Positions 167 to 19,874 of a DNA stretch of 64,000 nucleotides are shown piece by piece (position 1 is the first letter of the stretch; each line of letters opens with the position of its first letter). The DNA is from Marinilabiliaceae bacterium (GTDB taxonomy: Bacteria; Bacteroidota; Bacteroidia; Bacteroidales; Marinilabiliaceae): positions 2,812 to 66,811 of the forward strand of contig JBNKRV010000211.1 of NCBI GenBank assembly GCA_050296935.1, in the 5' to 3' direction. A program made the position numbers and the translations under genes. The notes under the pieces were generated by a model. It saw nothing but the letters and a program-made list of their open reading frames with translations. It was not told the origin of the DNA and did not search any database.

Positions 167-994
167 ATGAATTCATCAAACAAAACTTACCCGAATATTG
201 CACAAAGTTGGGGTATTGTAGGTATTGCAATTCTTGCACAAATATTGTTTTCTCCTGTTTTTCTGTTATTAGAAAATGTAATAGGAATGCAAGGTGCAAC
301 ATTAATTTATTATACACTTTCTGTTGGAGGAGCCTTTATTTTTGGTCACTTTATTCGCAAAAAGGAAACCGGCCTAAGTTCATATAATTTTGAGTTGGAT
401 TCATTGAAGTTAGTGGTTCTGATGGCAGTTTTTACTATAGCTATGGCTGTTGGTATTACTGATCCCATTGCAAGTTTAATTCCAATGCCGGATATTTTTA
501 AGCAGATGTTTTTGGAGATGGCATCTCAAAATGGTGTTTTCGGATTTATAACCATTGTGATTGTTGCTCCGATTCTTGAAGAGTTAATTTTTCGAGGTCT
601 GATTCTGGATGGCATGTTAAAAAGGTATTCTCCGGTTAAGTCTGTTTTGTATTCCAGTTTTCTTTTTGCATTTATTCATTTGAATCCGTGGCAGTTTATT
701 GCTGCGTTTTTAATAGGGATTTTCTCTGGATGGATATACTATAAAACACGAAAGCTTTCACTTACAATCATTATACATTTTGTGAATAATTTTGTAGCAT
801 TTATGTCAAGTCAAATGGTAAGTCCGGAAGATCAATTGGATCAATCTTTAATTGATTTTTATGGCGGACTGGTAAATGCGATCATTATTATTTCCGGGTG
901 TGTTTTATTGTGTCTGATTAGTTTATGGTTCATTTTTCAACATATTAATTCAAAAGAGGAGCGGGAAGTAGAAGCGGTTAATTCCTTTCAGTAA
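167..994 (+). CDS. CPBP family intramembrane glutamic endopeptidase (CAAX-protease-like membrane protein)
   Basis: ORF 113..994. Multi-pass hydrophobic protein with CPBP motifs EELIFRG, FAFIHL and HFVNN. The ATG at 167 (MNSSNK...) is preferred over the ATG at 113. Confidence 0.8.
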   Translation: MNSSNKTYPNIAQSWGIVGIAILAQILFSPVFLLLENVIGMQGATLIYYTLSVGGAFIFGHFIRKKETGLSSYNFELDSLKLVVLMAVFTIAMAVGITDPIASLIPMPDIFKQMFLEMASQNGVFGFITIVIVAPILEELIFRGLILDGMLKRYSPVKSVLYSSFLFAFIHLNPWQFIAAFLIGIFSGWIYYKTRKLSLTIIIHFVNNFVAFMSSQMVSPEDQLDQSLIDFYGGLVNAIIIISGCVLLCLISLWFIFQHINSKEEREVEAVNSFQ

Positions 995-1218
995 TTTACG
1001 AATAGGGCCTTGTGGGGTTTTAATTTCAAATATCCCGAAGCATGAAATTGTAATCTGAGATTCCTGATATGATAAGAAAACAGGTGAAATTCTACTGAAT
1101 TTGATTATTCTGTGATTTTTATTAAAAGTTTTTTATTTTGTAATCGTCTGTAGTGTTGGTGAATATGTAATTAAAAGATCGGATTGAGGATGTATGGATT
1201 AAAATATAGCTAGCACTG

Positions 1219-1250
1219 TTTGGATATTGGAATTAAAACGCATATATTTG
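1219..1250 (+). promoter_or_regulatory. Bacteroidota sigma-A type promoter (TTTG-N20-TAtaTTTG) upstream of the tRNA pair
   Basis: TTTG at 1219-1222 and TATATTTG at 1243-1250, with 20-nt spacing. It ends about 40 nt upstream of the first tRNA. Confidence 0.5.
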
Positions 1251-1289
1251 CAATCGCAAAAAAGGAAACTTATTTAGTTAAAAATATAT

Positions 1290-1362
<73 letters not shown>

Positions 1363-1366
1363 CTAT

Positions 1367-1399
1367 AAAACCGATAAGAGCTAATCTTTCGGTTTTTTT
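1367..1399 (+). terminator. hairpin plus T-run after the first tRNA
   Basis: AAACCGA(T)AAG ... CTTTCGGTTT stem with one bulge, followed by TTTTTTT. Confidence 0.5.
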
Positions 1400-1437
1400 A
1401 TGAGACTAAGAGTGATTTTAAATCACAAAAGATATAT

Positions 1438-1510
<73 letters not shown>

Positions 1511-1517
1511 CTATAAG

Positions 1518-1550
1518 AAGCCGATAGATTTTTTCTATCGGCTTTTTTTT
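1518..1550 (+). terminator. intrinsic terminator after the tRNA pair
   Basis: Perfect 11-bp stem AAGCCGATAGA / TCTATCGGCTT with a T5 loop, followed by a T-run. Confidence 0.8.
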
Positions 1551-1646
1551 ATGGCAAATATTTGTTTTGGGTAGAATTTATATTTACAATCTAAAGTTAT
1601 GTTTTCAATAACAAAAAGGTGAAAACTCCCATGTTTTTAGAATTAC

Positions 1647-1806
1647 TCTAAGTAGTGTTCGTCTATAAAGTCCAACTACTACGTTGTTGCTCAAAATCCA
1701 AATCCTCATATACACAAGTATACTGCGGTTTGAATTTTTCACACGCCTTGTATTTAAACTTTATAATCCAAACATCCGACTTTATGGACGGGCACTAAGT
1801 AGACAA
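1647..1806 (+). repeat. MITE-like hairpin repeat, family 1, copy A (full length)
   Basis: Imperfect terminal inverted repeats CTAnnnAGTGyyCGTCyATAAAGTC. The internal arms are also partly self-complementary. Alignable along its length with 10599..10750 and, inverted, with 61958..62103. Confidence 0.8.
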
Positions 1807-2101
1807 TTCAATTTGCATTTTGAGTAACTGTTATTGACTAATTATGTGTTTATGTTTCATTTATGCAGAAAATAAAACAAGTAATTAGGATATGCTTAAT
1901 CAGTTTTAGTAGCTTGTTTGCGCCAATTGGATATGGCAAAAAAATGAACTAATAGATTGATTTTAAAGATTATAAATTCTATTCAATTAATCAAATATTT
2001 TTATTTAAGCATGGTTAATTAAAGAAAATTAAATAACTTACCTTCGTTATGATGGATTAAATTTAAACCAGATATGAAAATCTACAGTCTATATATCTCA
2101 A

Positions 2102-3016
2102 ATGAAACATCACTCAAAAATTTATTTATGGAAGAATCCTGTTTTATTTATTAAGGATAAATTTAAAACAGGTTTTAATCAGAAAGGATTATATGCAATT
2201 TCTTCGCTACCTTCTATACCCTTAATAATTGGACTGATTGCTGACTTTAAGAACATATGGAATATTTCTGATAATATTACGACATTAACTTTATTATGGT
2301 TCTTATTTTTCTATGGCTTAATAAATACGGCAATGGTTTTTGTTATTCAAAGATCTAGTATTAGATTAAGAAAAGAAAAGAAATCTTTTCGAATTCTTCA
2401 TAAGATTATTTGCGAGGGTATTAGGCAATATGTTACAGATAAAGAATCTTCACAAACATTAAGTAAGGATAGAATAGCCGAGCGTATAGAAAAAATTTTA
2501 GCCGAATTCAATAAGCAGTTTATGGAAGTTTACCATAGGCCAAACATAACAATGACATTAAAATATCTTGTTAATGATCAACTTTTCCCCATAAGGGTTG
2601 GGGATGATAAAGACAATCGTCTATACTGCCCTGAACAAAAAGACGATTCGTTTGTTTATCAGTCACTTAATCAGACGGGAAACAAACTTCGCTATTTATA
2701 CGTAAAGAATATAAATAAAACTGATAAATTCGAAAATGAAGTAATTTTAAATCTTGTAGATATAAAGGCAAGAGCAAGGGATAATTACCAAACATTTATA
2801 GCACTTCCTATTAGGAGCGGGACAGTGAATGATGTCGTTGAGAATAGTGGTGTAAAAGTTAAACATGATTTAGGTATTTTAGGTATAGACATGAAGGAAG
2901 CGTATGGTTTTGGCAATTTTGAAAGTCATGAACTAGATATACTTGGTTGTCTAACAGATTTATTAGCATTGCCAACAAGCGATATTATTAAGATTTCAAA
3001 AGATCAGACCAATTAA
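2102..3016 (+). CDS. hypothetical membrane protein, N-terminal 2 TM helices plus C-terminal GAF-like domain
   Basis: 304-aa ORF with two hydrophobic helices (about residues 30-50 and 60-85). The C-terminal pattern TFIALPIRSG...DLGILGIDM...ELDILGCLTDLL resembles the core of a GAF fold. No family was recognised. Confidence 0.55.
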   Translation: MKHHSKIYLWKNPVLFIKDKFKTGFNQKGLYAISSLPSIPLIIGLIADFKNIWNISDNITTLTLLWFLFFYGLINTAMVFVIQRSSIRLRKEKKSFRILHKIICEGIRQYVTDKESSQTLSKDRIAERIEKILAEFNKQFMEVYHRPNITMTLKYLVNDQLFPIRVGDDKDNRLYCPEQKDDSFVYQSLNQTGNKLRYLYVKNINKTDKFENEVILNLVDIKARARDNYQTFIALPIRSGTVNDVVENSGVKVKHDLGILGIDMKEAYGFGNFESHELDILGCLTDLLALPTSDIIKISKDQTN

Positions 3017-3030
3017 TTAAATACTATATT

Positions 3031-3258
3031 ATGAATAAAACTTCTTTAGAATCAAGGTTAGATAGGATTCCTCAGAGAATCAAAGATATTTTAAGCACTT
3101 ACTTCGCAGATGAAAAAAATTTTCAGGTGCTGAGTGATGCTGTCTTAAAGAGTTCTATGGTAATAGAATTGGGTAATTATCAGTTGATGATTGAAGATCG
3201 AGAAGAGTTAGAAAGAATTAAAGTATTACTTACCAATGTAAGCTGTGAATTTGCGTAA
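3031..3258 (+). CDS. hypothetical small protein (75 aa), apparently co-transcribed with 2102..3016
   Basis: ORF starts 15 nt after the upstream stop, on the same strand. No family was recognised. Confidence 0.45.
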   Translation: MNKTSLESRLDRIPQRIKDILSTYFADEKNFQVLSDAVLKSSMVIELGNYQLMIEDREELERIKVLLTNVSCEFA

Positions 3259-3378
3259 GTATTGAAATCACAAAAATAAATGGAATTGTTCAACTTATGG
3301 ACAATTCGGATCACCTAGTAAATTTGGGTTAACTAAAAAGAGTTATGTTAGATTTGCAAAAAAAACTAACAAACAAAT

Positions 3379-3594
3379 ATGTACTCTCAAGATATCAATG
3401 CCCAATTACTAGAACTTATTCTACCTGCAGGGATTTTAGAACACTTTACAATTACAGACTTCCATCAGGAAGCCAGTGGTCAGAATTTATATACCAAGAA
3501 ACTTACGATCCATTTAGAGGAGAAGAAAGTTGTACCTGAGGAATATATGTCGATTATACATTTAAAGCAAGTGGATTTATGCCTGCCAGGTTAA
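3379..3594 (+). pseudogene. possible N-terminal remnant of a Bacteroidota-type transposase
   Basis: LLELILPAGILEHFTITDF...LTIHLEEKKVVPEEY resembles, from memory, the N-terminus of a transposase class common in Bacteroidota. The ORF ends after 71 aa, an adjacent frame continues as FKASGFMPAR for a few codons, and no catalytic domain follows. Confidence 0.3.
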
Positions 3595-3599
3595 TTAAT

Positions 3600-3685
3600 G
3601 GGTAATCCATTTATATTTCAATACAGCCTCCGGTATGGAGGTGTGTAGGCAACCCTGTGGTAGAGGCCAGGTGCTGTGTTGCTTT
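3600..3685. repeat. Y-like module fragment downstream of the GNAT stop codon
   Basis: Shares GGAGGTGTG(A)TAGG with 4617-4631 and contains the hairpin CCTCC-GGTAT-GGAGG. Confidence 0.4.
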
Positions 3686-4216
3686 TTAAATGTAATCCGT
3701 TTTATCTTTGTTTTCAATCATGAATTCACAAAAAAAATCTCCACTATCAGTTTGTCCCTCATTAATCAGACTCATACCACAACTTTCTGATAGTTTAATC
3801 GAGGCAATATTTTGTTTAAACATACGTGCAGTTAATTTCTCTAGTTTTAATTTTTGAAATCCATAATCAATCAATGAATTACAAATCTCAGAGCCATATC
3901 CCTTTCTCCAGAATCTATTATCTAGAATGTATCCTAACTCCAGATGTTTTAAATTTTGAAATGAATTAAACAATCCAGCTTCTCCAATTATAGAATCAGT
4001 GTTTTTGGTCAGAACTGTGAATATTCCAAATCCGTTATTGTAATCCTGATTTATTTTATCGTATTTCTCTTTGAGTTTTTCTTTAGTCCATTTAAAATCT
4101 GAATTTGGGATGTAAATCATATTTTTTGAGTCGTTTAAAATCTTGAGTAAAGAGTTTAAATCATCACTTTTAACTTCTCTAATCCAAAGTCTTTGGGTTT
4201 CAATTATAATATTCAT
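3686..4216 (-). CDS. GNAT family N-acetyltransferase (RimJ/RimL-like)
   Basis: 176 aa. The N-terminal ETQRLWIRE and the WRKGYGSE acetyl-CoA loop are typical of the Acetyltransf_3/RimJ class. Confidence 0.85.
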   Translation of the reverse strand: MNIIIETQRLWIREVKSDDLNSLLKILNDSKNMIYIPNSDFKWTKEKLKEKYDKINQDYNNGFGIFTVLTKNTDSIIGEAGLFNSFQNLKHLELGYILDNRFWRKGYGSEICNSLIDYGFQKLKLEKLTARMFKQNIASIKLSESCGMSLINEGQTDSGDFFCEFMIENKDKTDYI

Positions 4217-4356
4217 TTTTTAATCCGGGAATTAAATTTAAATCTCCATTTTTATCTTTCTATTTGTAAAATGCAGGGGGGTGATGCCTCATGGTGTTCA
4301 GTGTATGATTTCGGAGAGCGTTCCTGTTGACCGTTACGCTTTATTTTAATAAATAA

Positions 4357-4494
4357 GCAGTAGTACACTCACACCTGACGTTCTTGAAAAAGTTTAAAAA
4401 TACAAATTATCTTCAGTAAATCTGGATTGTGGGTATTTTTTATCCTTAGGGTGTAAGCCTCAAGTGGGCGGTCTGGCTGCTGCAGGATCGAACC
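4357..4494. repeat. array repeat module X, copy 1
   Basis: Near-identical to 6104..6238 (2 substitutions, at 4446 and 4463) and to 8984..9105. Confidence 0.85.
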
Positions 4495-4568
4495 GTTAAC
4501 AAGTGATACCTTTTTGCCTCAGCAAAATCGTAGTGGTTGACGGTGACGATAGTAGTCAAGGTTTTTTT
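4493..4568. repeat. array repeat module Z, copy 1 (nested hairpin plus T7 run)
   Basis: CCGTTAAC ... GTTGACGG outer stem enclosing TTTTGC-CTCA-GCAAAA. Alignable with 9104..9178. Confidence 0.75.
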
Positions 4569-4666
4569 GAGCGATGATATACCAGAAGAACCGCTGTATG
4601 CGAGGCTTGTATGTACGGAGGTGTGATAGGTGTATTAGTGGGTAAGCTCACTGGCCATCTGCTCGA
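4569..4666. repeat. array repeat module Y-like, abutting the stop of ORF 4667..5206
   Basis: The start, GATGATATACCAGAAGAACCGCTGTATGC, aligns with 6269-6297 and 7816-7842. It also carries the GATAGG motif at 4626-4631. Confidence 0.6.
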
Positions 4667-5206
4667 TTACAGCACGTTTTTCTTTTTGTCAATCAGTCTT
4701 TTTGAAGCTATCACCCAATGCTCCACGTACTTTTCAGGATTATCAACAACCTCCTGTAAATCATCAATTGATTTATGCTCGTGTTTTTTCATAAAACTAA
4801 TAATCCGTTGTTCATCATTTTCCTTCTTTTCTTCTTCTGTCAATTCTTGCATATTGCCATACAGTATATTAATGATTTTTTTATTAACCGATAAGAACAA
4901 TAAAAGGATTATTAAAATAATGAGATTAAATCCGAAAGAGTCAATTCCCCAAATGGTAATTGAAAATCCAAAATCAATATGCGAAAATTTAATAAGATTT
5001 AAAGTCCCAAGAACTAATAATACTCCTAAAATATAATTACTTAGTTGAACTGATTTTAAGCGAATAGCAAAAGAAGCCAACACACAAACCAATCCAATGT
5101 AAAATTTATTGTCTACTACATAATTGGTCAATAAGCTCAATATTAGTGAAAATATTGAGGAAGAAATCAGTAAGGTGTAAATTGAAAGTTCTATAGTCTT
5201 TTTCAT
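4667..5206 (-). CDS. hypothetical membrane protein (about 4 TM helices, charged C-terminal tail)
   Basis: 179-aa ORF with a hydrophobic N-terminal two thirds. No family was recognised. Confidence 0.55.
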   Translation of the reverse strand: MKKTIELSIYTLLISSSIFSLILSLLTNYVVDNKFYIGLVCVLASFAIRLKSVQLSNYILGVLLVLGTLNLIKFSHIDFGFSITIWGIDSFGFNLIILIILLLFLSVNKKIINILYGNMQELTEEEKKENDEQRIISFMKKHEHKSIDDLQEVVDNPEKYVEHWVIASKRLIDKKKNVL

Positions 5207-5306
5207 TAAAGATTCTTTTTAATTTTCATGTTTAGTTCAACAAAACCTCCTCTAATAAAGCGTATGAAAACAACGCTTTATTAGAGCTTAGTGTTGCCAG
5301 TAGTTT

Positions 5307-5957
5307 TTAATTCAATTTGTATGGAATTCTATTTTTCACTTCTCTGATAATTGGATTTGTAATCAACATTGGCGTCGTAAAATACATTCCTTGATTCCAA
5401 TGATTAAATTGCCATATCAAATCTCCTGATTTCCCATCATAAATTTGATTTATAATTTTGACTTCAGAAGTAGGTTCCGTTGAATAAGAACCTGTTGTCA
5501 AGGCCATTATATAATCTTTTGCTAATTCTCCTGCTTGGCTACTTGTAGATGCAGTCCTTACGCAATAAATAAATACTGCGTCGGCGTTCAAATCGCGTGC
5601 AATTTTGGGTATTTGGTCAATTGAGAATTTCTTGTCACCATCTTCAATCCGTTTTGCGAAATACTGGTCAATAATCTTTAAGTCTATAATTTCGATACCT
5701 AATGATTCCTCTTTTAATTTTTCAACTAATTTTTCCCTAAACGCTAATCCGAAAAATTGATCAACAGGGTATTTATCCATATGTGGTTGTTGGTTATTCA
5801 ATTCTGTCTTCAAGTCAAAATTAATTGGCAATACCGCCAATGTTTTATGCTCTTGCGTTAAAGTTTTATATTTCTCTGGATAATAAACTTTAGTACAGCT
5901 GATTAACATAAATATTATCAATCCTAAAATCTGAAATTTAAAGTTCTTGGTTTTCAT
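5307..5957 (-). CDS. hypothetical lipoprotein
   Basis: The internal ATG at 5957 gives MKTKNFKFQILGLIIFMLISC, a lipoprotein signal peptide with lipobox Cys. The upstream part of ORF 5307..6068 runs toward the X2 repeat (6104-6238) and is unlikely to be coding. Confidence 0.65.
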   Translation of the reverse strand: MKTKNFKFQILGLIIFMLISCTKVYYPEKYKTLTQEHKTLAVLPINFDLKTELNNQQPHMDKYPVDQFFGLAFREKLVEKLKEESLGIEIIDLKIIDQYFAKRIEDGDKKFSIDQIPKIARDLNADAVFIYCVRTASTSSQAGELAKDYIMALTTGSYSTEPTSEVKIINQIYDGKSGDLIWQFNHWNQGMYFTTPMLITNPIIREVKNRIPYKLN

Positions 5958-6103
5958 TAGCAATGTGTCTGTTTTTAAATTACTGGCAACGTTACAGCTT
6001 TGGTCTGAGCCGCCACTTTCTAAATACAACTCCAAAATCAGACTCTGTATCCAAACGAGCTGCGGCATTAGCTATCAGCTGCTGTGTGAGCCCTGCATGA
6101 GTA

Positions 6104-6238
6104 GCAGTACACTCACACCTGACGTTCTTGAAAAAGTTTAAAAATACAAATTATCTTCAGTAAATCTGGATTGTGGGTATTTTTTATCCGTAGGGTGTAA
6201 GCCTCACGTGGGCGGTCTGGCTGCTGCAGGATCGAACC
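6104..6238. repeat. array repeat module X, copy 2
   Basis: See 4357..4494. Confidence 0.85.
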
Positions 6239-6262
6239 ACCAGCAACAGTGAAGTTTTTTTT

Positions 6263-6425
6263 GAGGGATAGTATACCGGATGAACCGCCGTATATGCTTG
6301 ATGTGAAAGCTCAGGTAGAGCTTTTATCGAAAAGAATAAGCGTAGCTACCTGTATGTAGGTACAATGAGAGGCTTTCAGATAGGCACTTATCCAGTTGGT
6401 TGGCTACTTGAATGTACGCTGGTAT
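6263..6425. repeat. array repeat module Y, abutting the stop of the ATPase gene
   Basis: Alignable with 7812..7951. Both have the hairpin AAAGCTC-loop-GAGCTTT with different loops, the palindrome GTAGCTAC, and a GATAGG motif. Confidence 0.75.
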
Positions 6426-7547
6426 TTATTTTATTACTACAAAATCTCTAAAATTAGTTCTGTCAATCACTTCTTCTTTTGCATTATAAGTATTCACAAA
6501 TGTCTTTGGTAGTTTAACTTTCTTTTTGGAATTCCATTTAAATTCGTATCCAATTAGTTGACCATTTATTTCTTCAACAAGATCAACTTCTTGCTGTTGC
6601 TGAGTGCGCCAAAAATACATTTTCGCATAACTGTTTTTGTAATTATTCTGTTTTACTCTTTCTGTGATTAGAAAATTTTCCCACAAAGCTCCTGTATCCT
6701 GCCGAAGATCTAAACTGTTAAAATTCCCAAGAATCATATTCCTTACACCATTATCATAAAAGTATATTTTCCTGTTCTTTTTTATTTCATTTCTTAGATT
6801 CTTACTATAAGCATTAAGCCTATAAACAACAAAACCTTTCTCCAGGATATCAATATAATTTGATACCGTGTTTTTATCGACTCCAACAATTTGAGATAAT
6901 TCGTTGTAATTTACTTCACTTCCGATCTGTAATGCCAATGCTTGAACTAATTTCTCTAGTACTTCTGGCTTTCGTATATTTGAATATGCTAGAATATCCC
7001 GATATAAATAACTGTTTACAAGTTGTTTTAATATTTCCTTTTCCTCTCCTGGGCTATTAAGAATATCTGGATAAAAACCATACAATAATCTGTTTTCGAC
7101 TTGTTGTTCAGCCACTAGATATCCATGTGTATCTTCATACTCTTCCCAACTAATAGGGTGTAATTCATACTCCCACTTCTGACCTGTTAATGGCTCATTT
7201 AATTCTTGAGATAAACTAAATGAAGAAGATCCACTCACAAATAATTGAATATCTTTAAATTGATCTGTAATTATTTTTAGAGTTAAACCTATTCCTGATA
7301 TTCTTTGGGCTTCATCTATAAATACAGTTTTGTATTTACCTAATATTGATCTTATTTGCTCTGTATTCGGATTGTTGAGTAAGCTTCGAACCGTAGGATC
7401 ATCAGCATCAAGAAATAAATGCTTTTTATCTGAGACTATCTGATTTATTAAAGTTGTTTTTCCAACTTGTCTTGGGCCAATTAATAGAATAGCCTTTCCC
7501 TTTCCGGTCTTATTATCAATTACTCTTCTTAATGTCCGTGAATACAT
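6426..7547 (-). CDS. AAA family ATPase with DUF4143-type C-terminal domain
   Basis: Walker A GPRQVGKTT and Walker B FIDEAQ. Length and C-terminal layout are typical of the AAA_14/DUF4143 class. Confidence 0.85.
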   Translation of the reverse strand: MYSRTLRRVIDNKTGKGKAILLIGPRQVGKTTLINQIVSDKKHLFLDADDPTVRSLLNNPNTEQIRSILGKYKTVFIDEAQRISGIGLTLKIITDQFKDIQLFVSGSSSFSLSQELNEPLTGQKWEYELHPISWEEYEDTHGYLVAEQQVENRLLYGFYPDILNSPGEEKEILKQLVNSYLYRDILAYSNIRKPEVLEKLVQALALQIGSEVNYNELSQIVGVDKNTVSNYIDILEKGFVVYRLNAYSKNLRNEIKKNRKIYFYDNGVRNMILGNFNSLDLRQDTGALWENFLITERVKQNNYKNSYAKMYFWRTQQQQEVDLVEEINGQLIGYEFKWNSKKKVKLPKTFVNTYNAKEEVIDRTNFRDFVVIK

Positions 7548-7655
7548 ATCTCTAATTTTAATTCAAATATATGCAATAAGTATTGTATTCACCAATTACT
7601 ATATTATTATGTGAATTAATTTATCGTTTGGATTTTTTGCTTGTGTACAATGGTA

Positions 7656-7713
7656 AGTAGTGCCTGTTCATTAAGTCTGGTGTCTGGACTTTATAGACGA
7701 ACACAAAGTAGAC
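7656..7713 (-). repeat. MITE-like repeat family 1, internally deleted mini copy D
   Basis: The two terminal repeats AGTGCCTGTTCATTAAGTC and GGACTTTATAGACGAACAC are joined by about 8 nt. The flanks TAAGTAGTG / AAAGTAGAC match copy A. Confidence 0.65.
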
Positions 7714-7811
7714 ACTTGCGGGCTTCAGACTTGTCAAATCATTACCGAATTGAAGCGGACTGCAAACTTTGAGTTTGCAAGACCTTTCTTAAAGTGTTGA
7801 AAAGAGCTGTT

Positions 7812-7951
7812 GTAGTATTCCGGATGAACCGCCATGTATGCTTGGTGTGAAAGCTCTGATAGAGCTTTTAACGAAAAGAACAAGCGTAGCTACCTGTACA
7901 TGCGTTGGAGATAGAGGTTCTCTGATAGGTCAGCCTGTCGGCTGCCTATGA
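7812..7951. repeat. array repeat module Y, abutting the stop of GNAT 7952..8512
   Basis: Alignable with 6263..6425. It ends in the inverted repeat ATAGG(T)CAGCC-TGTC-GGCTGCCTAT at 7925-7949, 2 nt from the stop codon. Confidence 0.75.
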
Positions 7952-8512
7952 TTAGCGGTTTGTTGTTAATTTATTTCTAGTCATTATTACATTATCAATA
8001 TACTCTCCGAATTTTGTTTTTATAAATCCCTTCTGCCTACCAGTTTCTTCAAATCCCATGTTTGAATATATCTGTAATCCTTTTTTATTGTTGCTGAAAG
8101 CTTGTAGCCAAAGAATTTCAATATCTGGATTTTGGTCAACCCAATCAATAATAACTTTAAACATTGCTGTCCCGATTCCTTGTCCTTGCCATTCCTCATG
8201 AATTCCCATCCCTATGTAGCCAGTATGTTTCAGCATTTGTCGACCATTAATCATTAAGTCAATATTTCCGACAATAGTACCTTCATGTTCTGCAATTAAT
8301 AACAAATCATTTTTTCCATCTATAAATTTTCTAATCCATTCTTCGTGATTTTTAGCAAGTTCATTAAACTCTGCTTCAGTTAAAGGAATCAGTTTGCTTT
8401 TCAGATATGATTTAACACATTTTTGCAATTCTACCGAATCAGAAATCTTACCTTCTCTTATTAAAATCCGGTTTCCCTGTTTATCAATTATTTCTTGTGG
8501 TTCTATTTTCAT
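7952..8512 (-). CDS. GNAT family N-acetyltransferase
   Basis: 186 aa. The QGQGIGTAMF acetyl-CoA binding loop and overall layout are typical of GNAT proteins. Confidence 0.85.
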   Translation of the reverse strand: MKIEPQEIIDKQGNRILIREGKISDSVELQKCVKSYLKSKLIPLTEAEFNELAKNHEEWIRKFIDGKNDLLLIAEHEGTIVGNIDLMINGRQMLKHTGYIGMGIHEEWQGQGIGTAMFKVIIDWVDQNPDIEILWLQAFSNNKKGLQIYSNMGFEETGRQKGFIKTKFGEYIDNVIMTRNKLTTNR

Positions 8513-8522
8513 TTCAATTCTA

Positions 8523-8942
8523 TTAACTAGGAGTTGATACAGATTCCATAAATATCACGTGGTACTTGATTAATTCAAATCCAGACTTTTTATATAATCC
8601 ATGAGCATCATCAGTTGCTAATTCCCAGCGTTGAAGGTTTTGTAGTTCAGCATGATTCATTATTGATTTCATAAGTTTTACTCCCAAACCTTGTTTTCTG
8701 TACTCTTTCAAGATAAAAACATCTAAAATTCATGCAAAGACTGCGGAATCAGATACAACGCGGGCAAATCCAATTTGCTGTGAATCCATATAAACGCCAA
8801 AACAAAGTGAATTGTCAACAGATTTTCGAATCGTCTCAAGACTTCGACCTTTTGCCCAATAGGAGTCATTATTTAAGAAATCAAGAATCAACTTGACATC
8901 AGGCTTTTCTTTATCAGTCGATATATAAATTTCGTTATTCAT
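8523..8942 (-). pseudogene. GNAT family N-acetyltransferase interrupted by one in-frame TGA
   Basis: ORFs 8730..8942 and 8523..8711 are in the same frame. Reading through the TGA at 8730-8732 gives ...SDSAVFA-x-ILDVFILKEYRKQGLG..., a continuous GNAT core with Trp (TGG) expected at x. Confidence 0.7.
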
Positions 8943-8983
8943 TAATTTATGTTTGCAATGTCGTATTTTTCAATAACCGCTAA

Positions 8984-9105
8984 CCTGACGTTCTTGAAAA
9001 AGTTTAAAAATACAAATTATCTTCAGTAAATCTGGATTGTGGGTATTTTTTTATCCGTAGGGTGTAAGCCTCAAGTGGGTAGTCTGGCTGCTGCAGGATT
9101 GAACC
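8984..9105. repeat. array repeat module X, copy 3
   Basis: See 4357..4494. About 5 differences from copy 2. Confidence 0.85.
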
Positions 9106-9178
9106 GTTAACAAGAGATACCTTCTGCCCCGGCAAAATCGTAGTGGTTGACGGTGACGATAGTAGTGAAGTTTTTTTT
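9104..9178. repeat. array repeat module Z, copy 2
   Basis: Same outer stem as 4493..4568. The inner hairpin is kept with a changed loop (CCCG instead of CTCA), and a T8 run follows. Confidence 0.75.
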
Positions 9179-9306
9179 AACGATGATATGCAAGGTGAAC
9201 TTCAGGTATGATGAGTGAGAAGTACACCTTTAGTCTTTTAGCCTATCGGATGCCTACTCCGGTTATGTGTGGTTGTGCATTACTAAACTATTACAATCTC
9301 ATGCGA

Positions 9307-9807
9307 TCAATTTTCCTTAAAATCAGTGATGAATATTTGCGTACTCAATCCTCCATAATAACCATCAGGATAATAACCTGTGCAAATAATCTTTGTAGGA
9401 TAATAATAACTCTCATGGTATTCGACCTCTATTTTAGCTCCAGTCATATGGCTGTCAGAAGAATTAATTTGCTCATTACAACTCTCTACGGTACTATTTA
9501 TATAATTAAATACGTCGTCTATTGTTTCATAGTGTACAAGATCTTTAACCGAATCGTCTGAGTCATTGGACTGGATATAAATTGTATCTAACTCGCCATT
9601 TTTAACGATGGTTATTAATCCAGGTTGTCCGCCATTGTAACTTGCCGATTGCTCTTGAGTAAAAGAATAATCTAACATTCCTCTATTCTCCCATAATTCA
9701 CGATTAGTATGATATGAATCTTGATTAAAAAGCAGTCCAATAGAATCATCCGTATCACTGCATGAAACAATAACGAATGACAGTAATAATAAAAAGATAT
9801 ATTTCAT
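9307..9807 (-). CDS. hypothetical lipoprotein
   Basis: The ATG at 9807 gives MKYIFLLLLSFVIVSC, a lipoprotein signal peptide. The ORF track extends to 9885 without coding-like sequence. Confidence 0.6.
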   Translation of the reverse strand: MKYIFLLLLSFVIVSCSDTDDSIGLLFNQDSYHTNRELWENRGMLDYSFTQEQSASYNGGQPGLITIVKNGELDTIYIQSNDSDDSVKDLVHYETIDDVFNYINSTVESCNEQINSSDSHMTGAKIEVEYHESYYYPTKIICTGYYPDGYYGGLSTQIFITDFKEN

Positions 9808-10077
9808 AGTATAGTATTTAAAGTTTGCTGTTAGATGTATTTTTATTTTAATTGGTTGCGCAAATCTGTTTTTGAGATGAATCATTTTGAAATAAGTAAT
9901 CAGGAGAATCTAACTGTTACAATAAATACTCTATTTGATTCTTTCTACCCAATGAGCATTGTTGTTTATCAGTAAAGTAAGCGGTACGGGGAAAATACAC
10001 TTTAATTCAGGCAGTAGTTGTGTGCAATGATGTATTGTTTCAAAATGCTGGAATGATAGAAAGTCCTGAAGGTTTTG

Positions 10078-10470
10078 TTAGATATGAGCACCATCCACGT
10101 AAACCCATTTCCCATCTTCTTTTTCAAAAAATGATTTCTCGTGAATATGGTTTAATTTTCCATCCTCAATAAAAATGGCTTTGAATTCCACATATCCTGT
10201 TTGATCATTTTCCATTCCTTTTTCTGTGGACGAAATAGAAAGATTGACCCATGTAACGGATTGACTCCATTCTTTTATTTCTCTTTTTTCATTAACAGGT
10301 CTGGTGCTGGAATGATGACTTTTCATCAGGTAATCAATATTGGCTAAAGTAAATGCAGTATATCGTGATCGCATTAATTCTTCTGCAGTAGCAGCATCTT
10401 TTTTATTCTCAATGATTGGTTCGCAACATTGAGAAAAATCTTTATTTGATCCGCAAGGGCATTTTTTCAT
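10078..10470 (-). CDS. ychJ: YchJ family protein (SEC-C motif, UPF0225)
   Basis: CPCGS...FSQCC N-terminal SEC-C metal-binding motif, RSRYTAF, and a length of 130 aa. Confidence 0.8.
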   Translation of the reverse strand: MKKCPCGSNKDFSQCCEPIIENKKDAATAEELMRSRYTAFTLANIDYLMKSHHSSTRPVNEKREIKEWSQSVTWVNLSISSTEKGMENDQTGYVEFKAIFIEDGKLNHIHEKSFFEKEDGKWVYVDGAHI

Positions 10471-10598
10471 GATGGTAATTTTTAGAGTGCAGGTTGCAAA
10501 ATTATACTCTTCTCACAATAAATTATGGACTAAGGAAGAAAATATTTGAAGATTATTAAATTTCACTGGAAGTGAAATTTGCTAGCCTTGGTTTTTAA

Positions 10599-10750
10599 CT
10601 AGTGTTCGCCTATAAAGTCCAGCTACTTCGTTGTTGCTCATAATACAAATCCTCATATACCCTGGTATACTGCGGTTTGTGTTTTTCACACGCCTTGTGT
10701 TTTAACTTTATAGCCCCAACGTCCCACTTTATAGACAGTCACTAATAGTC
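10599..10750 (+). repeat. MITE-like hairpin repeat family 1, copy B (full length)
   Basis: Co-linear with copy A (1647..1806) in the same orientation. Confidence 0.8.
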
Positions 10751-10901
10751 AACATTGATATTCGGTTTTAAGGTAATTGTTGATTTTATAGTATACAGAA
10801 TTAGCTTCCATTGATCAACTTATGTTTCTTATGAACTATATACCTAACTGGTTTTATTTTTTAACTTTGCAACAGTTAAAATCTGGAATATAAATTATCT
10901 C

Positions 10902-11780
10902 ATGGATACTGCCAAAGACAAAAAGAATTTCTTACAAAGAATACGTAACAAATATCGTTTAGCCATATTTAATGAACAAACCTACGAAGAAGTATGGCAA
11001 ATGCGGTTATCACGATTAAATGTATTTACTGTGGTGGGTACATCAGCTATTGTACTGATTGTTCTTGTGATTTTGCTCATTGCCTATACCGGACTTAAAG
11101 AATATATACCGGGGTATCCAGATGGTAATCAGCGTATCCTGATGGTTCGGAATGTAAATCGCGTTGATTCCTTAATACAGGAAATAAATAAGCGCGACGA
11201 GTTTTTTAAATCCATTAAAGCCGTTGTTCAGGGCGAAGTTCCTGCTTATGAAGATGTGGAAGAGGATAATAATCAGAATCAGAAAAATATCGAACCTGTA
11301 TCTTTTGAGAAGAGTAAAGATGATATAGAGTTTAGAGAACAAGTAGAGCAGGAGGAAAAATATAATCTTTCTGTTTTTAACGATAATTCAAATATCCCCG
11401 AATTAAACCAGGTTTATTTTTTTACGCCATTAAAAGGTATTGTGGTAAAGCGGTTTATTGAAAGTGAAAATCATTTTGGCGTTGATATCGTATCAAAGCC
11501 GGGCGAAACAGTTTCTTCAATTCTTAGCGGAACTGTTATTTTTTCGGGCTGGACTGTAGAAACAGGTTATGTGATAATGATTCAGCATGATAATGATTTA
11601 GTTTCTTGTTATAAGCATAATTCTAAGTTACTTAAAAAATCAGGGAGTAAAATTAAAGCAGGAGAAGCTATAGCTAATGTTGGAAATTCAGGTGAATTAA
11701 CAACCGGACCGCATCTACATTTTGAATTATGGTATAAGGGTGAAGCAATGAATCCCGAAGAGTATATTTTATTTGAATAA
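10902..11780 (+). CDS. M23 family metallopeptidase
   Basis: N-terminal TM anchor. C-terminal HFGVD ... GNSGELTTGPHLHFEL motifs of LytM/M23 peptidases. Confidence 0.85.
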   Translation: MDTAKDKKNFLQRIRNKYRLAIFNEQTYEEVWQMRLSRLNVFTVVGTSAIVLIVLVILLIAYTGLKEYIPGYPDGNQRILMVRNVNRVDSLIQEINKRDEFFKSIKAVVQGEVPAYEDVEEDNNQNQKNIEPVSFEKSKDDIEFREQVEQEEKYNLSVFNDNSNIPELNQVYFFTPLKGIVVKRFIESENHFGVDIVSKPGETVSSILSGTVIFSGWTVETGYVIMIQHDNDLVSCYKHNSKLLKKSGSKIKAGEAIANVGNSGELTTGPHLHFELWYKGEAMNPEEYILFE

Positions 11781-11800
11781 AAACAGATATCCACAACAAT

Positions 11801-12955
11801 ATGAAGAAACGGGTAGCAGTGCTGGGCTCAACAGGCTCAATAGGAACACAAACCCTTGATGTAATATCAAAAAATCCAGATAAATTTGAAGTAGAAGTAT
11901 TGACGGCAAATAATCGTTTAGGAAGATTAGTTGAACAATGTCGTACTTTCGTTCCAAATGTGGTTGTAATAGCTAATAAAGAAAAGTACCCTCAGCTAAA
12001 GGAGGCGCTGAAAGATTTACCTATTAAAGTATATGCAGGTAGCGAAGCCATTGCACAGGTGGTGGAGATGTCAACAGTAGATGTTGTATTGACGGCGATG
12101 GTTGGGTTTTCAGGATTATTGCCCACATTAAACGCCATTAAAGCTAAAAAACCTATAGCATTAGCGAACAAAGAAACTCTTGTAGTAGCCGGTGATATTA
12201 TCACGGAGATGGCAGCCGTTAATAAGGTGCCCATATTACCCGTTGACTCTGAACATTCTGCTATATTTCAATGTTTAGTTGGGGAGTTTCACAATCCTAT
12301 AGAAAAGATATACTTAACGGCCTCAGGTGGTCCATTCAGAGGGGAAAACAAGGAATTCCTGAAAAATGTTAAACCGGAACAGGCTCTGAATCATCCAAAC
12401 TGGGAGATGGGGAATAAAATTACAATTGATTCAGCCAGTATGATGAATAAGGGTTTGGAGGTGATTGAAGCGAAGTGGTTATTTGGATTGAAACCAGAGC
12501 AAATTGATGTAATTGTACACCCACAGAGTATTGTGCATAGTATTGTTCAGTTTACTGATGGCTCCATGAAAGCTCAAATGGGTTTGCCTGATATGAGATT
12601 GCCGATTCAATATGCCTTAACATATCCGGAAAGAATTCAAAGTGATTTTCAAAGGTTTAACTTTATGCAGTATCCAAATCTATCTTTTGAACAACCGGAT
12701 CTGGATTCATTTAAGAATCTGGCACTGGCATTTGAGGCTCTGAAAAAAGGGGGGAATGCTCCTTGTATCATAAATGCTGCTAATGAAGTTGTTGTGGAGG
12801 CTTTTCTGGAACAGAAAGTAGGATTTTTACAAATGTCTGATATTATTGAAAATACCTTGAGCAAAGCAACGTTTATAAATAAACCATCTTTTGATGATTA
12901 TTTTGATTCGGATAAAGAAGCCAGACAAATAGCAAAAACAATGATTGCTCATTAG
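11801..12955 (+). CDS. dxr: 1-deoxy-D-xylulose-5-phosphate reductoisomerase
   Basis: VAVLGSTGSIGTQTLDV NADPH-binding N-terminus, LANKE, and the SEHSA and NKGLE motifs. Confidence 0.95.
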   Translation: MKKRVAVLGSTGSIGTQTLDVISKNPDKFEVEVLTANNRLGRLVEQCRTFVPNVVVIANKEKYPQLKEALKDLPIKVYAGSEAIAQVVEMSTVDVVLTAMVGFSGLLPTLNAIKAKKPIALANKETLVVAGDIITEMAAVNKVPILPVDSEHSAIFQCLVGEFHNPIEKIYLTASGGPFRGENKEFLKNVKPEQALNHPNWEMGNKITIDSASMMNKGLEVIEAKWLFGLKPEQIDVIVHPQSIVHSIVQFTDGSMKAQMGLPDMRLPIQYALTYPERIQSDFQRFNFMQYPNLSFEQPDLDSFKNLALAFEALKKGGNAPCIINAANEVVVEAFLEQKVGFLQMSDIIENTLSKATFINKPSFDDYFDSDKEARQIAKTMIAH

Positions 12956-13003
12956 AATAAAAAAAGAATATATTTGTAGCTTAATTTTTTTGAAATAGAA
13001 TAA

Positions 13004-14317
13004 ATGGAATTTTTAATAAAAGCAGGACAGTTAATTTTAAGTCTTTCAATATTAGTGATATTACATGAGTTTGGACATTTCTTTTTTGCCAAACTATTTA
13101 AAACAAGGGTAGAGAAATTCTATCTCTTTTTTGACCCTTGGTTTTCATTATTGAAATTTAAAAAAGGGGATACTGAATATGGAGTAGGTTGGTTGCCCTT
13201 GGGGGGATATGTGAAAATATCCGGAATGATTGATGAATCAATGGATAAGGAGGCTATGAAAGAAGAGCCAAAACCATTCGAATTCAGATCTAAGAAAGCA
13301 TACCAGCGATTACTGATTATGATTGGTGGTGTTTTGGTGAATTTTCTGTTGGCCTTTTTCTTGTTTTGGATGATTCTGTTCAAATGGGGTGAGGGATATA
13401 TAGATGTTAAAGATGCTAAATTCGGGTTGGCTTATCATCCGCTGGCGCATGAAATTGGATTGCAAGATGGTGATGTTGTTACCAGCGTGGATACTTTTAA
13501 GGTAACTAATGCTTCAGATATTGCTTCTCATATATTGTTAGAGAGTGCAACAGAGCTTACTGTTAAAAGAGGAGATTCAACTTTTGTACTTCCTATTCCT
13601 GAGAATTTTAAAGATTCATTCCTGCAAAAAGAGGTGAAAAGTTTTGCCGTTGTTCGTATGCCTTTTGTTGTAGATTCGGTTTTACCGAAAAGCAATGCAG
13701 ATAAAGCAGGTTTACTGTCGGGGGATAGTTTGGTTTCGATTGAAGGTAAGCCAGCGCCTTATTACAGGGTTGCAACCGAACTTTTAAGCGAAAATGCTGA
13801 TAAAAGTATTACTTTAACTGTGTTTAGAAATGGAACTCTGGAAAATGTTCAATGTGATGTTTCTAAAAAAGGTAAAATAGGAGTTTATCCCAAAGCCGAT
13901 TATTTTAACGTAACAAAGGTAACCTATGGCTTTTGGGAGGCATTACCTGCAGGTATCTCAAAAGGTGTAAATACCTTGGTTGGGTATATAAAACAATTTA
14001 AACTGGTATTTTCAAAAGAAGGAGTGAAACAATTGGGTGGTTTTGGAGCTATTGGAAATTTATTTCCTCCACATTGGGATTGGGCTTCATTCTGGTCGTT
14101 AACGGCATTCTTATCTATTGTATTAGCATTTATGAATATTCTACCTATACCGGCACTGGATGGAGGCCATGTTCTGTTTTTGCTTTATGAAATTGTCTCA
14201 GGAAGAAAACCAAGTGAAAAGTTCCTTGAGTATGCTCAGATTGTTGGTATGGTATTGCTATTTAGCTTGTTAATTTTCGCCAACGGTAATGATTTATATA
14301 GGTTGTTATTTAAATAA
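13004..14317 (+). CDS. rseP: RIP metalloprotease RseP (site-2 protease)
   Basis: HEFGHF zinc motif in TM1, central PDZ regions, and the C-terminal NILPIPALDGG motif. Confidence 0.9.
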   Translation: MEFLIKAGQLILSLSILVILHEFGHFFFAKLFKTRVEKFYLFFDPWFSLLKFKKGDTEYGVGWLPLGGYVKISGMIDESMDKEAMKEEPKPFEFRSKKAYQRLLIMIGGVLVNFLLAFFLFWMILFKWGEGYIDVKDAKFGLAYHPLAHEIGLQDGDVVTSVDTFKVTNASDIASHILLESATELTVKRGDSTFVLPIPENFKDSFLQKEVKSFAVVRMPFVVDSVLPKSNADKAGLLSGDSLVSIEGKPAPYYRVATELLSENADKSITLTVFRNGTLENVQCDVSKKGKIGVYPKADYFNVTKVTYGFWEALPAGISKGVNTLVGYIKQFKLVFSKEGVKQLGGFGAIGNLFPPHWDWASFWSLTAFLSIVLAFMNILPIPALDGGHVLFLLYEIVSGRKPSEKFLEYAQIVGMVLLFSLLIFANGNDLYRLLFK

Positions 14318-15343: not shown

Positions 15344-16114
15344 TTAGTTGATATTGTTATTGATTGCTTTTGTTCCACTTACTTCTCCATTTTTGTAAAT
15401 GGTTATTGATATTAATTTGCCATCGTCGTTATAATTAAACTTTTCACCATCGATTAATTCACCATTAACAAAGTACCCTTTTGTTTCTACTTTGCCTGTC
15501 ATGCTAATAATGGTATGATTTCCTGTGCCATGAAATTTTTCTCTGTTGACCGTCCCAGACTTGGTGGATGATTTATCTTTTGCCGCAATAATTTGCTGTT
15601 GATCTCTGGTGGCATTCAGTTTACCTGAAGCGTAAACTTTTTCCTGAATGAGGACTCCGTCTTCACTATATACTTTTAAAACGCCTTCTGTTTTGCCGTT
15701 TATCCAAATTCCTGCATACTTATTTTCTCCATTTTTATGGAAATATTTTTGTTCTCCTTCTCTTTTGCCTTTTTCGTTATATTCCCAATCATACGAAAGC
15801 TGTCCGGATTCGTAGTAATATTTGTAATCACCTACCCAATGATCAACCTGCCAGTTCCCTGATTCCCTAATATTTCCATTCGGATAATAGAAGATTGCTT
15901 TACCTTTTGGCACACCGTTTTCATAGTTGATTTCTGATTTTTTCTCACCATTATTATAATAGATAATCCATATTCCTTGTTTTAAGCCATTTTTATCAGT
16001 TTGATTTATAGTGTCGTTCTGATTTATTTGCGTTAAAGCATTACAATTTGCTTCAGATCTGGTCCAGAAGCAAATAAAGATAAATAAGATTATAATTTTG
16101 AATGTGAAGGACAT
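15344..16114 (-). CDS. MORN-repeat (YwqK-like) secreted protein
   Basis: Signal peptide followed by repeated G.W..YY.NG....E..Y..G...G units. Confidence 0.7.
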   Translation of the reverse strand: MSFTFKIIILFIFICFWTRSEANCNALTQINQNDTINQTDKNGLKQGIWIIYYNNGEKKSEINYENGVPKGKAIFYYPNGNIRESGNWQVDHWVGDYKYYYESGQLSYDWEYNEKGKREGEQKYFHKNGENKYAGIWINGKTEGVLKVYSEDGVLIQEKVYASGKLNATRDQQQIIAAKDKSSTKSGTVNREKFHGTGNHTIISMTGKVETKGYFVNGELIDGEKFNYNDDGKLISITIYKNGEVSGTKAINNNIN

Positions 16115-19809: not shown

Positions 19810-19833
19810 AATGTCATTGTAATTGAAAAATTT

Positions 19834-19860: not shown

Positions 19861-19874
19861 TAAAACGAATTATT

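Follow-up and report, generated by a model that had tools for sequence, protein, structure and literature searches.

We analysed a 64-kb stretch of the chromosome of a Marinilabiliaceae bacterium, hereafter the window, which is also the part of the source genome covered by our searches for recombinases and for repeat copies. Downstream of ychJ, the window contains a 6.4-kb array of small genes, whose open reading frames (ORFs; positions 3686–9885) all lie on the minus strand and are separated by spacers carrying three kinds of repeated modules, X, Y and Z. We think it probable that this locus is a chromosomal, recombinase-less and partly decayed integron-like cassette array of Bacteroidota, belonging to a family with an Xer-type recombinase and attC-like folded sites. 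Families were assigned with Pfam, NCBIfam and PADLOC; the locus comprises the following genes and bounds:

3595–9975, minus strand: whole cassette array, from the synteny breakpoint 3' of ychJ (...TTACTGATAAAC, 9975–9964) to the insertion sequence (IS) remnant
10078–10470: YchJ gene, upstream of the array (family searches)
9307–9807, minus strand: DUF6174 lipoprotein gene, first unit (Pfam PF19671)
8523–8942, minus strand: GNAT pseudogene with a single in-frame stop (family searches)
7952–8512, minus strand: GNAT gene (family searches)
7548–7600, minus strand: Bacteroidetes-type promoter of the ATPase gene, TTG-N21-TATATTTG, with the −7 box at 7571–7564 (consensus match only)
6426–7547, minus strand: AAA_14/DUF4143 ATPase gene, defence candidate PDC-S01 (PADLOC PDC-S01, E 3e-165)
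5307–5957, minus strand: lipoprotein gene without family match
4667–5206, minus strand: membrane-protein gene without family match
3686–4216, minus strand: GNAT gene (Pfam Acetyltransf_3; also called GNAT-176)
3379–3594, plus strand: truncated ORF for the N-terminal region of an ISAon1-family transposase, closing the array (NCBIfam NF049916, E 8.5e-8)

The eight co-oriented ORFs lie in sliding windows of 26–37% GC, and the array spacers are GC-richer (39.7%) than 31 other intergenic regions (27.1%; Mann–Whitney p = 2e-4). The promoter of the ATPase gene is the sole perfect −7 match on the gene strand within the array; a scan for sigma-70 promoters and terminators gave chance-level results, with no intrinsic terminator called, and Rfam returned tRNAs only, both at gathering thresholds and at E <= 5. 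No SUKH or Imm family was found among the array proteins by Pfam, NCBIfam and PADLOC, the family-less proteins had no match in PHROGs, and family searches detected no recombinase encoded anywhere in the window. An initial annotation, made from the letters alone, had described one-stranded ORFs, the same gene labels, a transposase remnant, GC-rich spacers punctuated by repeat modules and the lack of a recombinase; all these points were borne out, X being present in three copies, Y in five spacers and Z in two copies where shuffled sequences lead one to expect none.

The same annotation had divided the array into units running from X through one or two ORFs to Y, a scheme that does not match the boundaries found here. 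Under the cassette rule that we tested, the 10 bases from G|TT are the reverse complement of the R'' box (nnnnnnnAAC) of the same cassette. The cassettes and sites of the window are:

7951–8984, minus strand: two-gene GNAT cassette; start GTTAGCGGTT (8984–8975), R'' AACCGCTAAT (7960–7951) with its last base changed from C to T
5988–6126, minus strand: stretch of 139 nt with paired ends, AACGT...ACGTT, running between the X2 end and the start G of the lipoprotein cassette
5239–5990, minus strand: lipoprotein cassette; start GTTGCCAGTA (5990–5981), R'' TACTGGCAAC (5302–5293), then a short attC-like site
AAC(5295)...GTT(5239), minus strand: this short attC-like site, intact, 57 nt, of the same type as L023 744–800 (fetched loci carry L numbers)
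4666–5241, minus strand: membrane-protein cassette; junction G|TTGAACTAA (5241–5232), R'' GTGCTGTAAT (4675–4666) with a C-to-T change
4270–4335, minus strand: remnant of a 124-nt-class site; R'' AACGGTCAAC (4335–4326), 21-mer ACAGGAACGCTCTCCGAAATC (4327–4307)
3615–4216, minus strand: GNAT gene 3686–4216 with a degenerate short-type site; R'' AAAAAGCAAC (3687–3678), R' changed from GTT to ATT at about 3620

The boxes of the lipoprotein cassette are complementary at all 10 positions and 688 nt apart, a spacing identical in L014, whose boxes (GTTACCAGTA/TACTGGTAAC) differ from those of the window by a compensatory A/G–T/C change. Those of the GNAT pair are complementary at 9 of 10 positions, and the initial G of this cassette is the final base of X3. 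The lipoprotein and membrane-protein genes had been taken for one unit; they are divided by the short site 5295–5239, which the annotation had overlooked, and thus form two cassettes. This site and L023 744–800 have the flanks AAC-ACTnAGCnTCTAAT ... GGAGGnnTTTG|TTGAACTAAAC in common, and their inner stem covaries. What had been called a Y-like fragment at 3600–3685 turned out to be a different thing, a short attC-type site: the site of this last spacer, E (3685–3615), matches the short sites of L023 (nhmmer E 6e-5). The 5' junction of the membrane-protein cassette differs from that of its homologues in L023 and L024.

Two cassettes have an R'' for which homologous boxes are available (7951–7960 in the GNAT pair, 4666–4675 in the membrane-protein cassette); in each of them AAC has become AAT, and a Y element comes next. 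A chance C-to-T change or site inactivation could account for this. The remnant at 4335–4270, located downstream of X1 and with an R'' complementary to the start of X1 at 8 of 10 positions, is a deleted 124-class site. Its noncoding 21-mer ACAGGAACGCTCTCCGAAATC is found unchanged in the interior of L014 sites (9926–9946 and 13420–13440), in a genome whose proteins are only about 70–75% identical. The stretch 5988–6126, with a DNA fold E of −19.8, may also be a site. For the DUF6174 unit, a candidate start GTTAGATTCT (9914–9905) and an R''-like AGATTGTAAT (9299–9290) were picked by eye and agree at 7 of 10 positions only, which is not significant.

Three gene families of the window were compared across genomes, namely the GNAT pair, the lipoprotein and the membrane protein, and all three share the gene together with both boundary boxes with the Xer-type attC-like arrays of Marinilabiliales-like genomes (L014, L023, L025 and L028 among them). 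The lipoprotein homologue (75% amino acid identity) of L014 lies on a 6.09-Mb contig directly downstream of a tyrosine recombinase gene, among small co-oriented genes whose spacers each hold an imperfect palindrome, ..TAAC-AAATTGTATATGG-...-CCACATACAAGTGA-CCG|TTA... At least 12 cassettes of this array bear the G|TT/AAC signature, eight with perfect 10-mers and four with one mismatch; taken as positive controls, L014, L023 and L025 each gave 8–12 perfect start/R'' pairs. The membrane-protein homologues (68% and 54%) are cassettes GTTACAGCAC...GTGCTGTAAC in L023 and L024. As to the GNAT pair, it recurs in L025 and L028–L032 as a single 1024-nt cassette, GTTAGCGGTT...AACCGCTAAC, with 88–89% amino acid identity. 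This cassette stands behind five different upstream sites and the junction is always G|TT, which is direct comparative evidence of mobility with a crossover at G|TT. The control loci L015–L022, where lipoprotein homologues are surrounded by core genes, lack G|TT/AAC boxes. Altogether, the GNAT pair, the lipoprotein and the membrane protein appear to be genuine mobile cassettes, and their real boundaries seem to be the classical G|TT and AAC boxes rather than X, Y and Z.

The sites of the related arrays belong to one covarying family of hairpins. Fifteen sites of L014 and L023 are alignable over 140 nt, with compensatory changes in 15 of 20 pairs: R'' (TAAC) pairs with R' (GTTA), the L''/L' stem covaries, and an asymmetric spacer is unpaired. 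The distance from AAC to GTT is 124 ± 1 nt in most sites, the other classes measuring about 57 nt and about 181–189 nt. R1, a home-made covariance model of the 124-nt class built from these L014/L023 sites, retrieved more than 20 further sites in loci outside the training set (L025 with nine, L028 with four, and L024, L030, L031 and L033 with the others), every one of them on the strand of the cassettes, and none in the loci where the homologues lie among core genes.

The recombinase heading the L014 array is a 378-residue Xer-like tyrosine recombinase, co-oriented with the cassettes. Sixteen members make up its 90%-identity cluster, and several of these lie on contigs of 5.5–6.3 Mb. It scores 210.8 bits on the integron-integrase model TIGR02249 (cut-off 265) and 216.6 on the archaeal XerA/integron-integrase model. 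When aligned with VchIntIA (PDB 2a3v), it gives two blocks, between which IntIA residues 180–245 correspond to only 24 residues, indicating that the IntI-specific insertion (roughly 40 residues) is missing. This insertion is considered essential for attC recognition by IntI.

The modules of the window lie in the following places:

9179–9306, minus strand: Y copy of spacer A, divergent, ending ...GAAGTTCACCTTG (9203–9191), from nhmmer homology between spacers and an alignment
9103–9178, minus strand: A8 run (9178–9171) and Z3 palindrome, ACCGTCAAC (9154–9146) ... GTTAACGGT (9111–9103)
8984–9111, minus strand: X3, starting G|TTAACGGTTCAATCC and ending ...AAGAACGTCAG|G, cut exactly at the GNAT cassette start
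7812–7951, minus strand: Y copy of spacer B (Y_B), in the 3' site slot of the GNAT cassette, with an 80-nt inner imperfect palindrome AAC(7906)...GTT(7827)
6263–6425, minus strand: Y copy of spacer C (Y_C), with R''-like AGTAGCCAAC near its 5' end and 3' box GGCGGTTCATCCGG (6289–6276)
6104–6262, minus strand: A8 run (6262–6255) and X2 (core 6117–6185), without Z
4569–4666, minus strand: Y copy of spacer D, short form (duplex E −12.4, p about 0.03)
4357–4568, minus strand: A7 run (4568–4562), Z1 (ACCGTCAAC 4544–4536 ... GTTAACGGT 4500–4492) and X1 (core 4373–4441)

The three X copies (4353–4515, 6097–6259 and 8964–9126) have in common a core of 69 nt, at 4373–4441, 6117–6185 and 8983–9051, without a single difference, while their left part differs by about 10%, which points to constraint or recent conversion. 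They are distributed in the order DUF6174, X3, GNAT pair, ATPase, X2, lipoprotein, membrane protein, X1, GNAT. X1 and X3 start at the G|TT of Z, and X ends in AAGAAC-GTCAGG. The two Z copies (4512–4568 and 9122–9178) are 91% identical, with ends ACCGTCAAC and GTTAACGGT complementary at 8 of 9 positions, and match R1 weakly (Z1, E 1.6; Z3, E 3.8 over 9101–9156). X, together with the A-run and Z, is best read as an ORF-less unit, three copies of which stand between gene cassettes; our guess is that it might drive expression of the downstream cassettes, as a promoter or a leader.

The Y copies at 6269–6354 and 7813–7898 are 91% identical, those of the other spacers being more divergent. Y starts where the 3' site starts in other genomes and is similar in length. 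Its 3' box, CATAC..GGCGGTTC, looks like the L'-R' arm found in true sites, and Y_B has CATACATG in common with the site of the homologous cassette in L028. Judged by duplex energy, the Y arms pair no better than shuffles, except for spacer D, the only Y with 5'/3' arm pairing above shuffles; as a group, they show no significant covariation, and the RNAalifold consensus is limited to two small local hairpins. Folding of Y on the coding strand does exceed that of shuffles (z −2.5 to −4.9). In one hairpin, the window and L006, the relative described below, differ by a compensatory change. Y_B folds with z −3.1, the energy of its palindrome (E −9.0) lying inside the range of true sites and also of background. 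The similarity between Y_B and Y_C continues 17 nt beyond GG|TTC although different units follow, so that GGTTC is not a demonstrated crossover point. We conclude that Y is a lineage-specific family occupying the 3' site slot, either a derived site or a replacement, whose hairpin was largely lost or was never there.

According to nhmmer searches with each spacer against the window, X, Y and Z are confined to the array. No exact X pattern occurs in the genome, metagenome or viral collections scanned, and the X 27-mer is absent from these collections and from the whole metagenome-assembled genome (MAG) L006; a gapped Y pattern gave two chance matches in metagenomes, in unrelated high-GC or coding DNA, and distant blastn of spacer C against plasmids gave nothing. 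None of the three modules matches R1 as a full site. That annotation had surmised that the modules make up an undescribed capture architecture; chance-level arm pairing in Y, an X with neither a fold signal nor a canonical Bacteroidetes promoter and the lack of R1 matches speak against this. The GC-rich X, Y and Z repeats are lineage-specific additions, not canonical recombination sites. Three other candidates were dropped: GGTTCGATCC in X as a tRNA-like element or T-loop and ACGGCGGTTC in Y as domain V of a group II intron, for both of which ARAGORN and Rfam gave no support, and a plus-strand small RNA ended by Z and a T-run, whose stem has only 5 bp and for which no terminator was called.

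As for variation of the locus, the initial annotation had asked whether relatives differ in gene content, and the answer is divided. Three same-species MAGs (GCA_050296355.1, GCA_050297775.1 and GCA_050297455.1) encode identical proteins, show no unit-wise variation and have the array fixed. The closest species representative, L006, another Marinilabiliaceae MAG, has a YchJ 98% identical and flanks of about 94% nucleotide identity; its synteny with the window runs from 19458 to 9964 and ends about 110 nt past the ychJ stop. Beyond this breakpoint, L006 has wholly different genes: another small gene comes first, then a Y-like element (nhmmer E 4e-5), and after these the remnant of a group II intron and further genes unrelated to the array. 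Turnover thus takes place just downstream of ychJ. Group II intron reverse transcriptase genes lie in or beside the arrays, as the remnant at 12044–12457 (minus strand) of L006, about 350 nt from the Y-like element, and at full length in L028 (657–2132, plus strand). They are reminiscent of the attC-targeting group IIC introns of integrons. Note that short-read MAG and Logan contigs break in X, Z or the site of spacer E (in window coordinates, L001 ends at about 6113, L004 starts at about 4445, L005 ends at about 6164 and about 3671, L002 ends at about 9137), and that most arrays of this kind can be expected to be fragmented in metagenome assemblies, 12 of 14 contigs with the GNAT cassette being shorter than 2 kb.

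We propose that the cassettes of this family consist of a G|TTnnnnnnn start, one or two promoterless genes, an nnnnnnnAAC end and an imperfect-palindrome site. As to movement, the comparison between genomes shows the same cassette joined exactly at G|TT behind different upstream sites. By analogy with integron biology and from the recombinase-headed L014 array, a tyrosine recombinase would perform the exchange, the L014-type enzyme presumably acting on folded single strands as IntI does. The array of the window may have arisen by cassette exchange and then lost contact with the enzyme, inactivating changes having frozen it in place with no recombinase nearby. The pseudogene, the two changes from AAC to AAT in R'', the truncated sites and the distal ISAon1 remnant indicate that it is now decaying.

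Several results weigh against this interpretation. Only two of about nine putative units pass the test of start/R'' complementarity, the others agreeing at 4–8 of 10 positions, so that cassette-end complementarity is found in two units only. A strict RYYYAAC...GTTRRRY scan of the array gave no matches, and a structural site scan gave three where the background is 1.8 per 6.8 kb. R1 detects no full site in the window or in the same-species MAGs: its best window match has E 0.18, which is noise, from which only a 20-nt internal fragment (4308–4327) stands out, and L001 and L003 gave none. The attC-like inventory of the window comprises one intact and one degenerate short site, one 124-class remnant and two Z palindromes. 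The Y copies are 60–91% alike, though the same cassettes bear unrelated sites elsewhere, a pattern for which mere decay of the site proper to each cassette does not account. No significant fold was seen in X, which has, on either strand, no canonical Bacteroidetes promoter (TTTG-N19-21-TAnnTTTG) but only TATTTTTA with no −33 box; in local alignments, its similarity to the ORF-less modules of L014 and L023 is at chance (z < 1.3). Finally, the cross-genome comparison covers three families, the GNAT pair, the lipoprotein and the membrane protein; when the other cassette proteins were compared by tblastn with every fetched locus, no close homologues emerged.

We also considered other explanations of the modules, each of which we regard as unlikely. 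The Y–A-run–X spacer might serve as a regulatory insulator that combines a 3' end or terminator with a promoter or leader, was copied between cassettes by gene conversion or duplication, and was kept for expression irrespective of recombination. The invariant core of X next to its divergent left part would fit this, as would the position of X, always upstream of genes, the above-shuffle folding of Y with its compensatory hairpin change, and the repeated ORF-less units with a perfect Bacteroidetes promoter in related arrays. However, X itself is devoid of such a promoter, no intrinsic terminator was detected and Rfam gave no match; we hold this explanation to be improbable. Rather improbable, too, is the idea that X, Y and Z are generic intergenic repeats of the repetitive extragenic palindrome (REP) or miniature inverted-repeat transposable element (MITE) type, gathered in a variable islet and unrelated to cassette movement. 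The genome does have such a family, M, with copies at 1655–1795, 61960–62092 and 7660–7702 and also in L006, and Z, a small palindrome, occurs in some but not all of a set of spacers that are otherwise alike. MAG contigs are interrupted within X in the manner of multicopy repeats, but the three copies of X within the locus are sufficient to explain these breaks. Against generic repeats also stand the 10 copies found in 6.4 kb versus none in the other 57 kb, their single orientation relative to the genes, the 20 kb of L006 without copies save one Y-like element at the same locus, and the absence of the X 27-mer from L006 and the scanned collections. In addition, inspection of the modules by eye revealed no convincing terminal inverted repeats or target duplications, including around the X unit.

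A third possibility is that X, Y and Z serve for recombination in an undescribed capture system of its own, with its recombinase encoded elsewhere, which would have repackaged cassettes of integron-like origin downstream of ychJ. In keeping with it, Y begins exactly where the 3' site of other genomes begins and X3 stops exactly at the G with which the GNAT cassette starts, the Y copies of unrelated cassettes resemble each other, the one variable gene that L006 has at this locus is succeeded by a Y-like element, a box GGCGGTTC(A/T)TC recurs in Y while a similar box, CGGTTCGATCC, opens X, and the R'' boxes preceding Y all read TAAT, not TAAC. Conversely, the array has no linked recombinase and the scans revealed no second genome with X, Y_B and Y_C remain alike past GG|TTC, the three same-species MAGs lack unit-wise variation, and the Y group lacks significant pairing or covariation; we give this system little credence. 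We grant the same small probability to a composite spacer, in which Y, the A-run, Z where present and X would form a functional recombination site of enlarged size or else an attI-like landing pad with its own expression signal, an Xer-type recombinase without the IntI insertion serving these junctions in trans. If this were true, second-generation junctions would both recombine and drive expression, and a single array would have three such heads.

The decayed, integron-like cassette array that we favour can be set beside known systems. For attC-site clusters that have no integron-integrase (CALIN), the proposed origins, which match here, are integrase loss, rearrangement or IS insertion (2016, PMC4889954). 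As in CALIN and sedentary chromosomal integrons, the array consists of co-oriented, mostly promoterless, unrelated small genes with no integrase nearby, cassettes open at G|TT and are closed by a complementary ...AAC box with an imperfect-palindrome site, and the same cassette occurs in different arrays. Unlike in CALIN, the L014 recombinase that accompanies homologous cassettes has no IntI insertion, scores below the integron-integrase cut-off and is co-oriented with the cassettes, most sites of the window are degenerate or replaced by Y, and a repeated ORF-less unit, X, is present. A complete integron has an adjacent intI with the IntI-specific insertion, of which there is none in the window; for a CALIN, IntegronFinder asks for two or more attC sites within 4 kb. 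The locus fits the CALIN concept within the Xer-type family.

The second system to consider is rAID-1 of Bacteroidales, an acquired interbacterial defence array associated with a recombinase, where an XerD-like recombinase heads co-oriented low-GC genes and the intergenic repeats are 'reminiscent of integrons' (Ross et al. 2019, 10.1101/471110). Its definition calls for an XerD-like recombinase at the 5' end with no less than 44% identity to BF9343_RS08045, at least two co-oriented downstream genes with GC <= 41%, and conserved intergenic motifs. The likeness is as follows: both occur in the phylum Bacteroidota, the Xer-like recombinase of L014 heads short co-oriented low-GC genes with conserved intergenic motifs, and the related array L024 carries a SUKH/SMI1_KNR4 gene. 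In the window itself, co-oriented low-GC genes and repetitive spacers are found, a resemblance of architecture. On the other hand, the window contains no recombinase and hence lacks the defining feature of rAID-1; its genes encode GNATs, lipoproteins and the PDC-S01 ATPase, none being of immunity type, and the organism is a marine or environmental Marinilabiliaceae, not one of the gut Bacteroidales. Of the earlier suggestion of an integron-, CALIN- or rAID-like array, shared mobile cassettes and G|TT breakpoints uphold the general idea, whereas strict membership fails, in the case of integrons for want of IntI and in that of rAID-1 for want of a recombinase and of immunity genes; this locus, without its recombinase, is CALIN- or rAID-like. 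A 2025 preprint (PMC12247911) calls the mechanism that builds rAID-type arrays unknown.

With regard to size and regularity, the 124 ± 1 nt site class of L014 and L023 resembles the repeats (VCRs) of the Vibrio cholerae superintegron, from which the Y copies of the window differ by their lack of arm pairing. VCRs are about 120–130 nt long and mutually similar, follow unrelated cassettes in one chromosomal array, and are functional attC hairpins bound by IntIA. X, for its part, is like the ORF-less or promoter-bearing cassettes of integrons in being short, noncoding and repeated between gene cassettes, but differs in having no recognisable promoter, no similarity to the L014 and L023 units and weakly supported cassette ends (8 of 10 positions for X1).

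The related arrays offer further observations. In L025 (JGI 3300044477, Ga0436620_0002674; 1081–13184), the GNAT pair adjoins defence cassettes encoding KwaA/KwaB of Kiwa, an MmeI-like type IIL restriction-modification enzyme and an AAA_15/AAA_21 ATPase. ORF-less cassettes are repeated two to three times in L014 (8407–9023 equals 15659–16275; 11819–12290, 19219–19696 and 19824–20294) and in L023 (about 9560–9840, 12540–12815 and 4960–5210), where, about 75 nt before the following cassette begins, they contain a Bacteroidetes promoter that fits the consensus perfectly, TTTG-N19-TAAGTTTG. L023 also holds two identical 2396-nt units (798–3194 and 16522–18918) bounded by GTTGAACTAA ... TTAGTTCAAC, each with an IS91-like Y2 transposase and a 295-residue tyrosine recombinase on the strand opposite to the array, the pair thus being packaged with cassette-type ends; the R' GTTGAACTAA is also found 3' of the short site of the window (5241–5232). 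In the same genome as L023, a second co-oriented array without R1-type sites (L027; coordinates of array and repeats, 8921–12593 and 8271–8431) has a repeat of its own, about 90 nt long and containing two small hairpins, which lies upstream of four consecutive genes, and also six tandem copies of a 21-nt repeat. This suggests that several kinds of repeat-punctuated arrays exist in these genomes.

Around the array, the M repeats have terminal inverted repeats GTTCGTCTATAAAGTCC / GACTTTATGGACnGGCAC and adjoin core genes, unlike X, Y and Z:

1655–1795, plus strand: M repeat
61960–62092, minus strand: M repeat
9717–9874 of L006: M repeat
7660–7702, minus strand: MITE-like repeat M in its short, 43-nt 'solo hairpin' form, in the upstream spacer of the ATPase gene

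A tandem pair of near-identical tRNA-Met (CAT) genes lies at 1290–1363 and 1438–1511 (plus strand), each followed by a hairpin and a T-run. Two plus-strand ORFs of 304 and 75 residues (2102–3258), located between these tRNA genes and the IS remnant, are kept in the same-species MAGs; neither has a match in NCBIfam, PHROGs or PADLOC, nor does the 304-residue ORF in Pfam. The initial annotation had counted proximity to a tRNA among the hallmarks of an integron; since the tRNA-Met genes are 2 kb away, past unrelated plus-strand ORFs, this proximity is not informative.

Arrays of this kind in Marinilabiliales-like genomes obey an exact integron cassette grammar: the crossover is at G|TT, the AAC box is complementary, and the hairpin sites covary and belong to a fixed 124-nt class. 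This grammar is kept although the linked recombinase lacks the IntI insertion, which may be the more interesting result. Such arrays carry defence and accessory genes between genomes (Kiwa, MmeI-like restriction-modification, PDC-S01, GNATs), and they provide a concrete, testable model of cassette capture for a phylum in which integrons are little studied. For annotation, the consequence is that integrase-centred tools will miss loci of this type. The window shows one such array stranded without its enzyme, and adds to the family a strongly conserved noncoding unit, X, that may organise expression.

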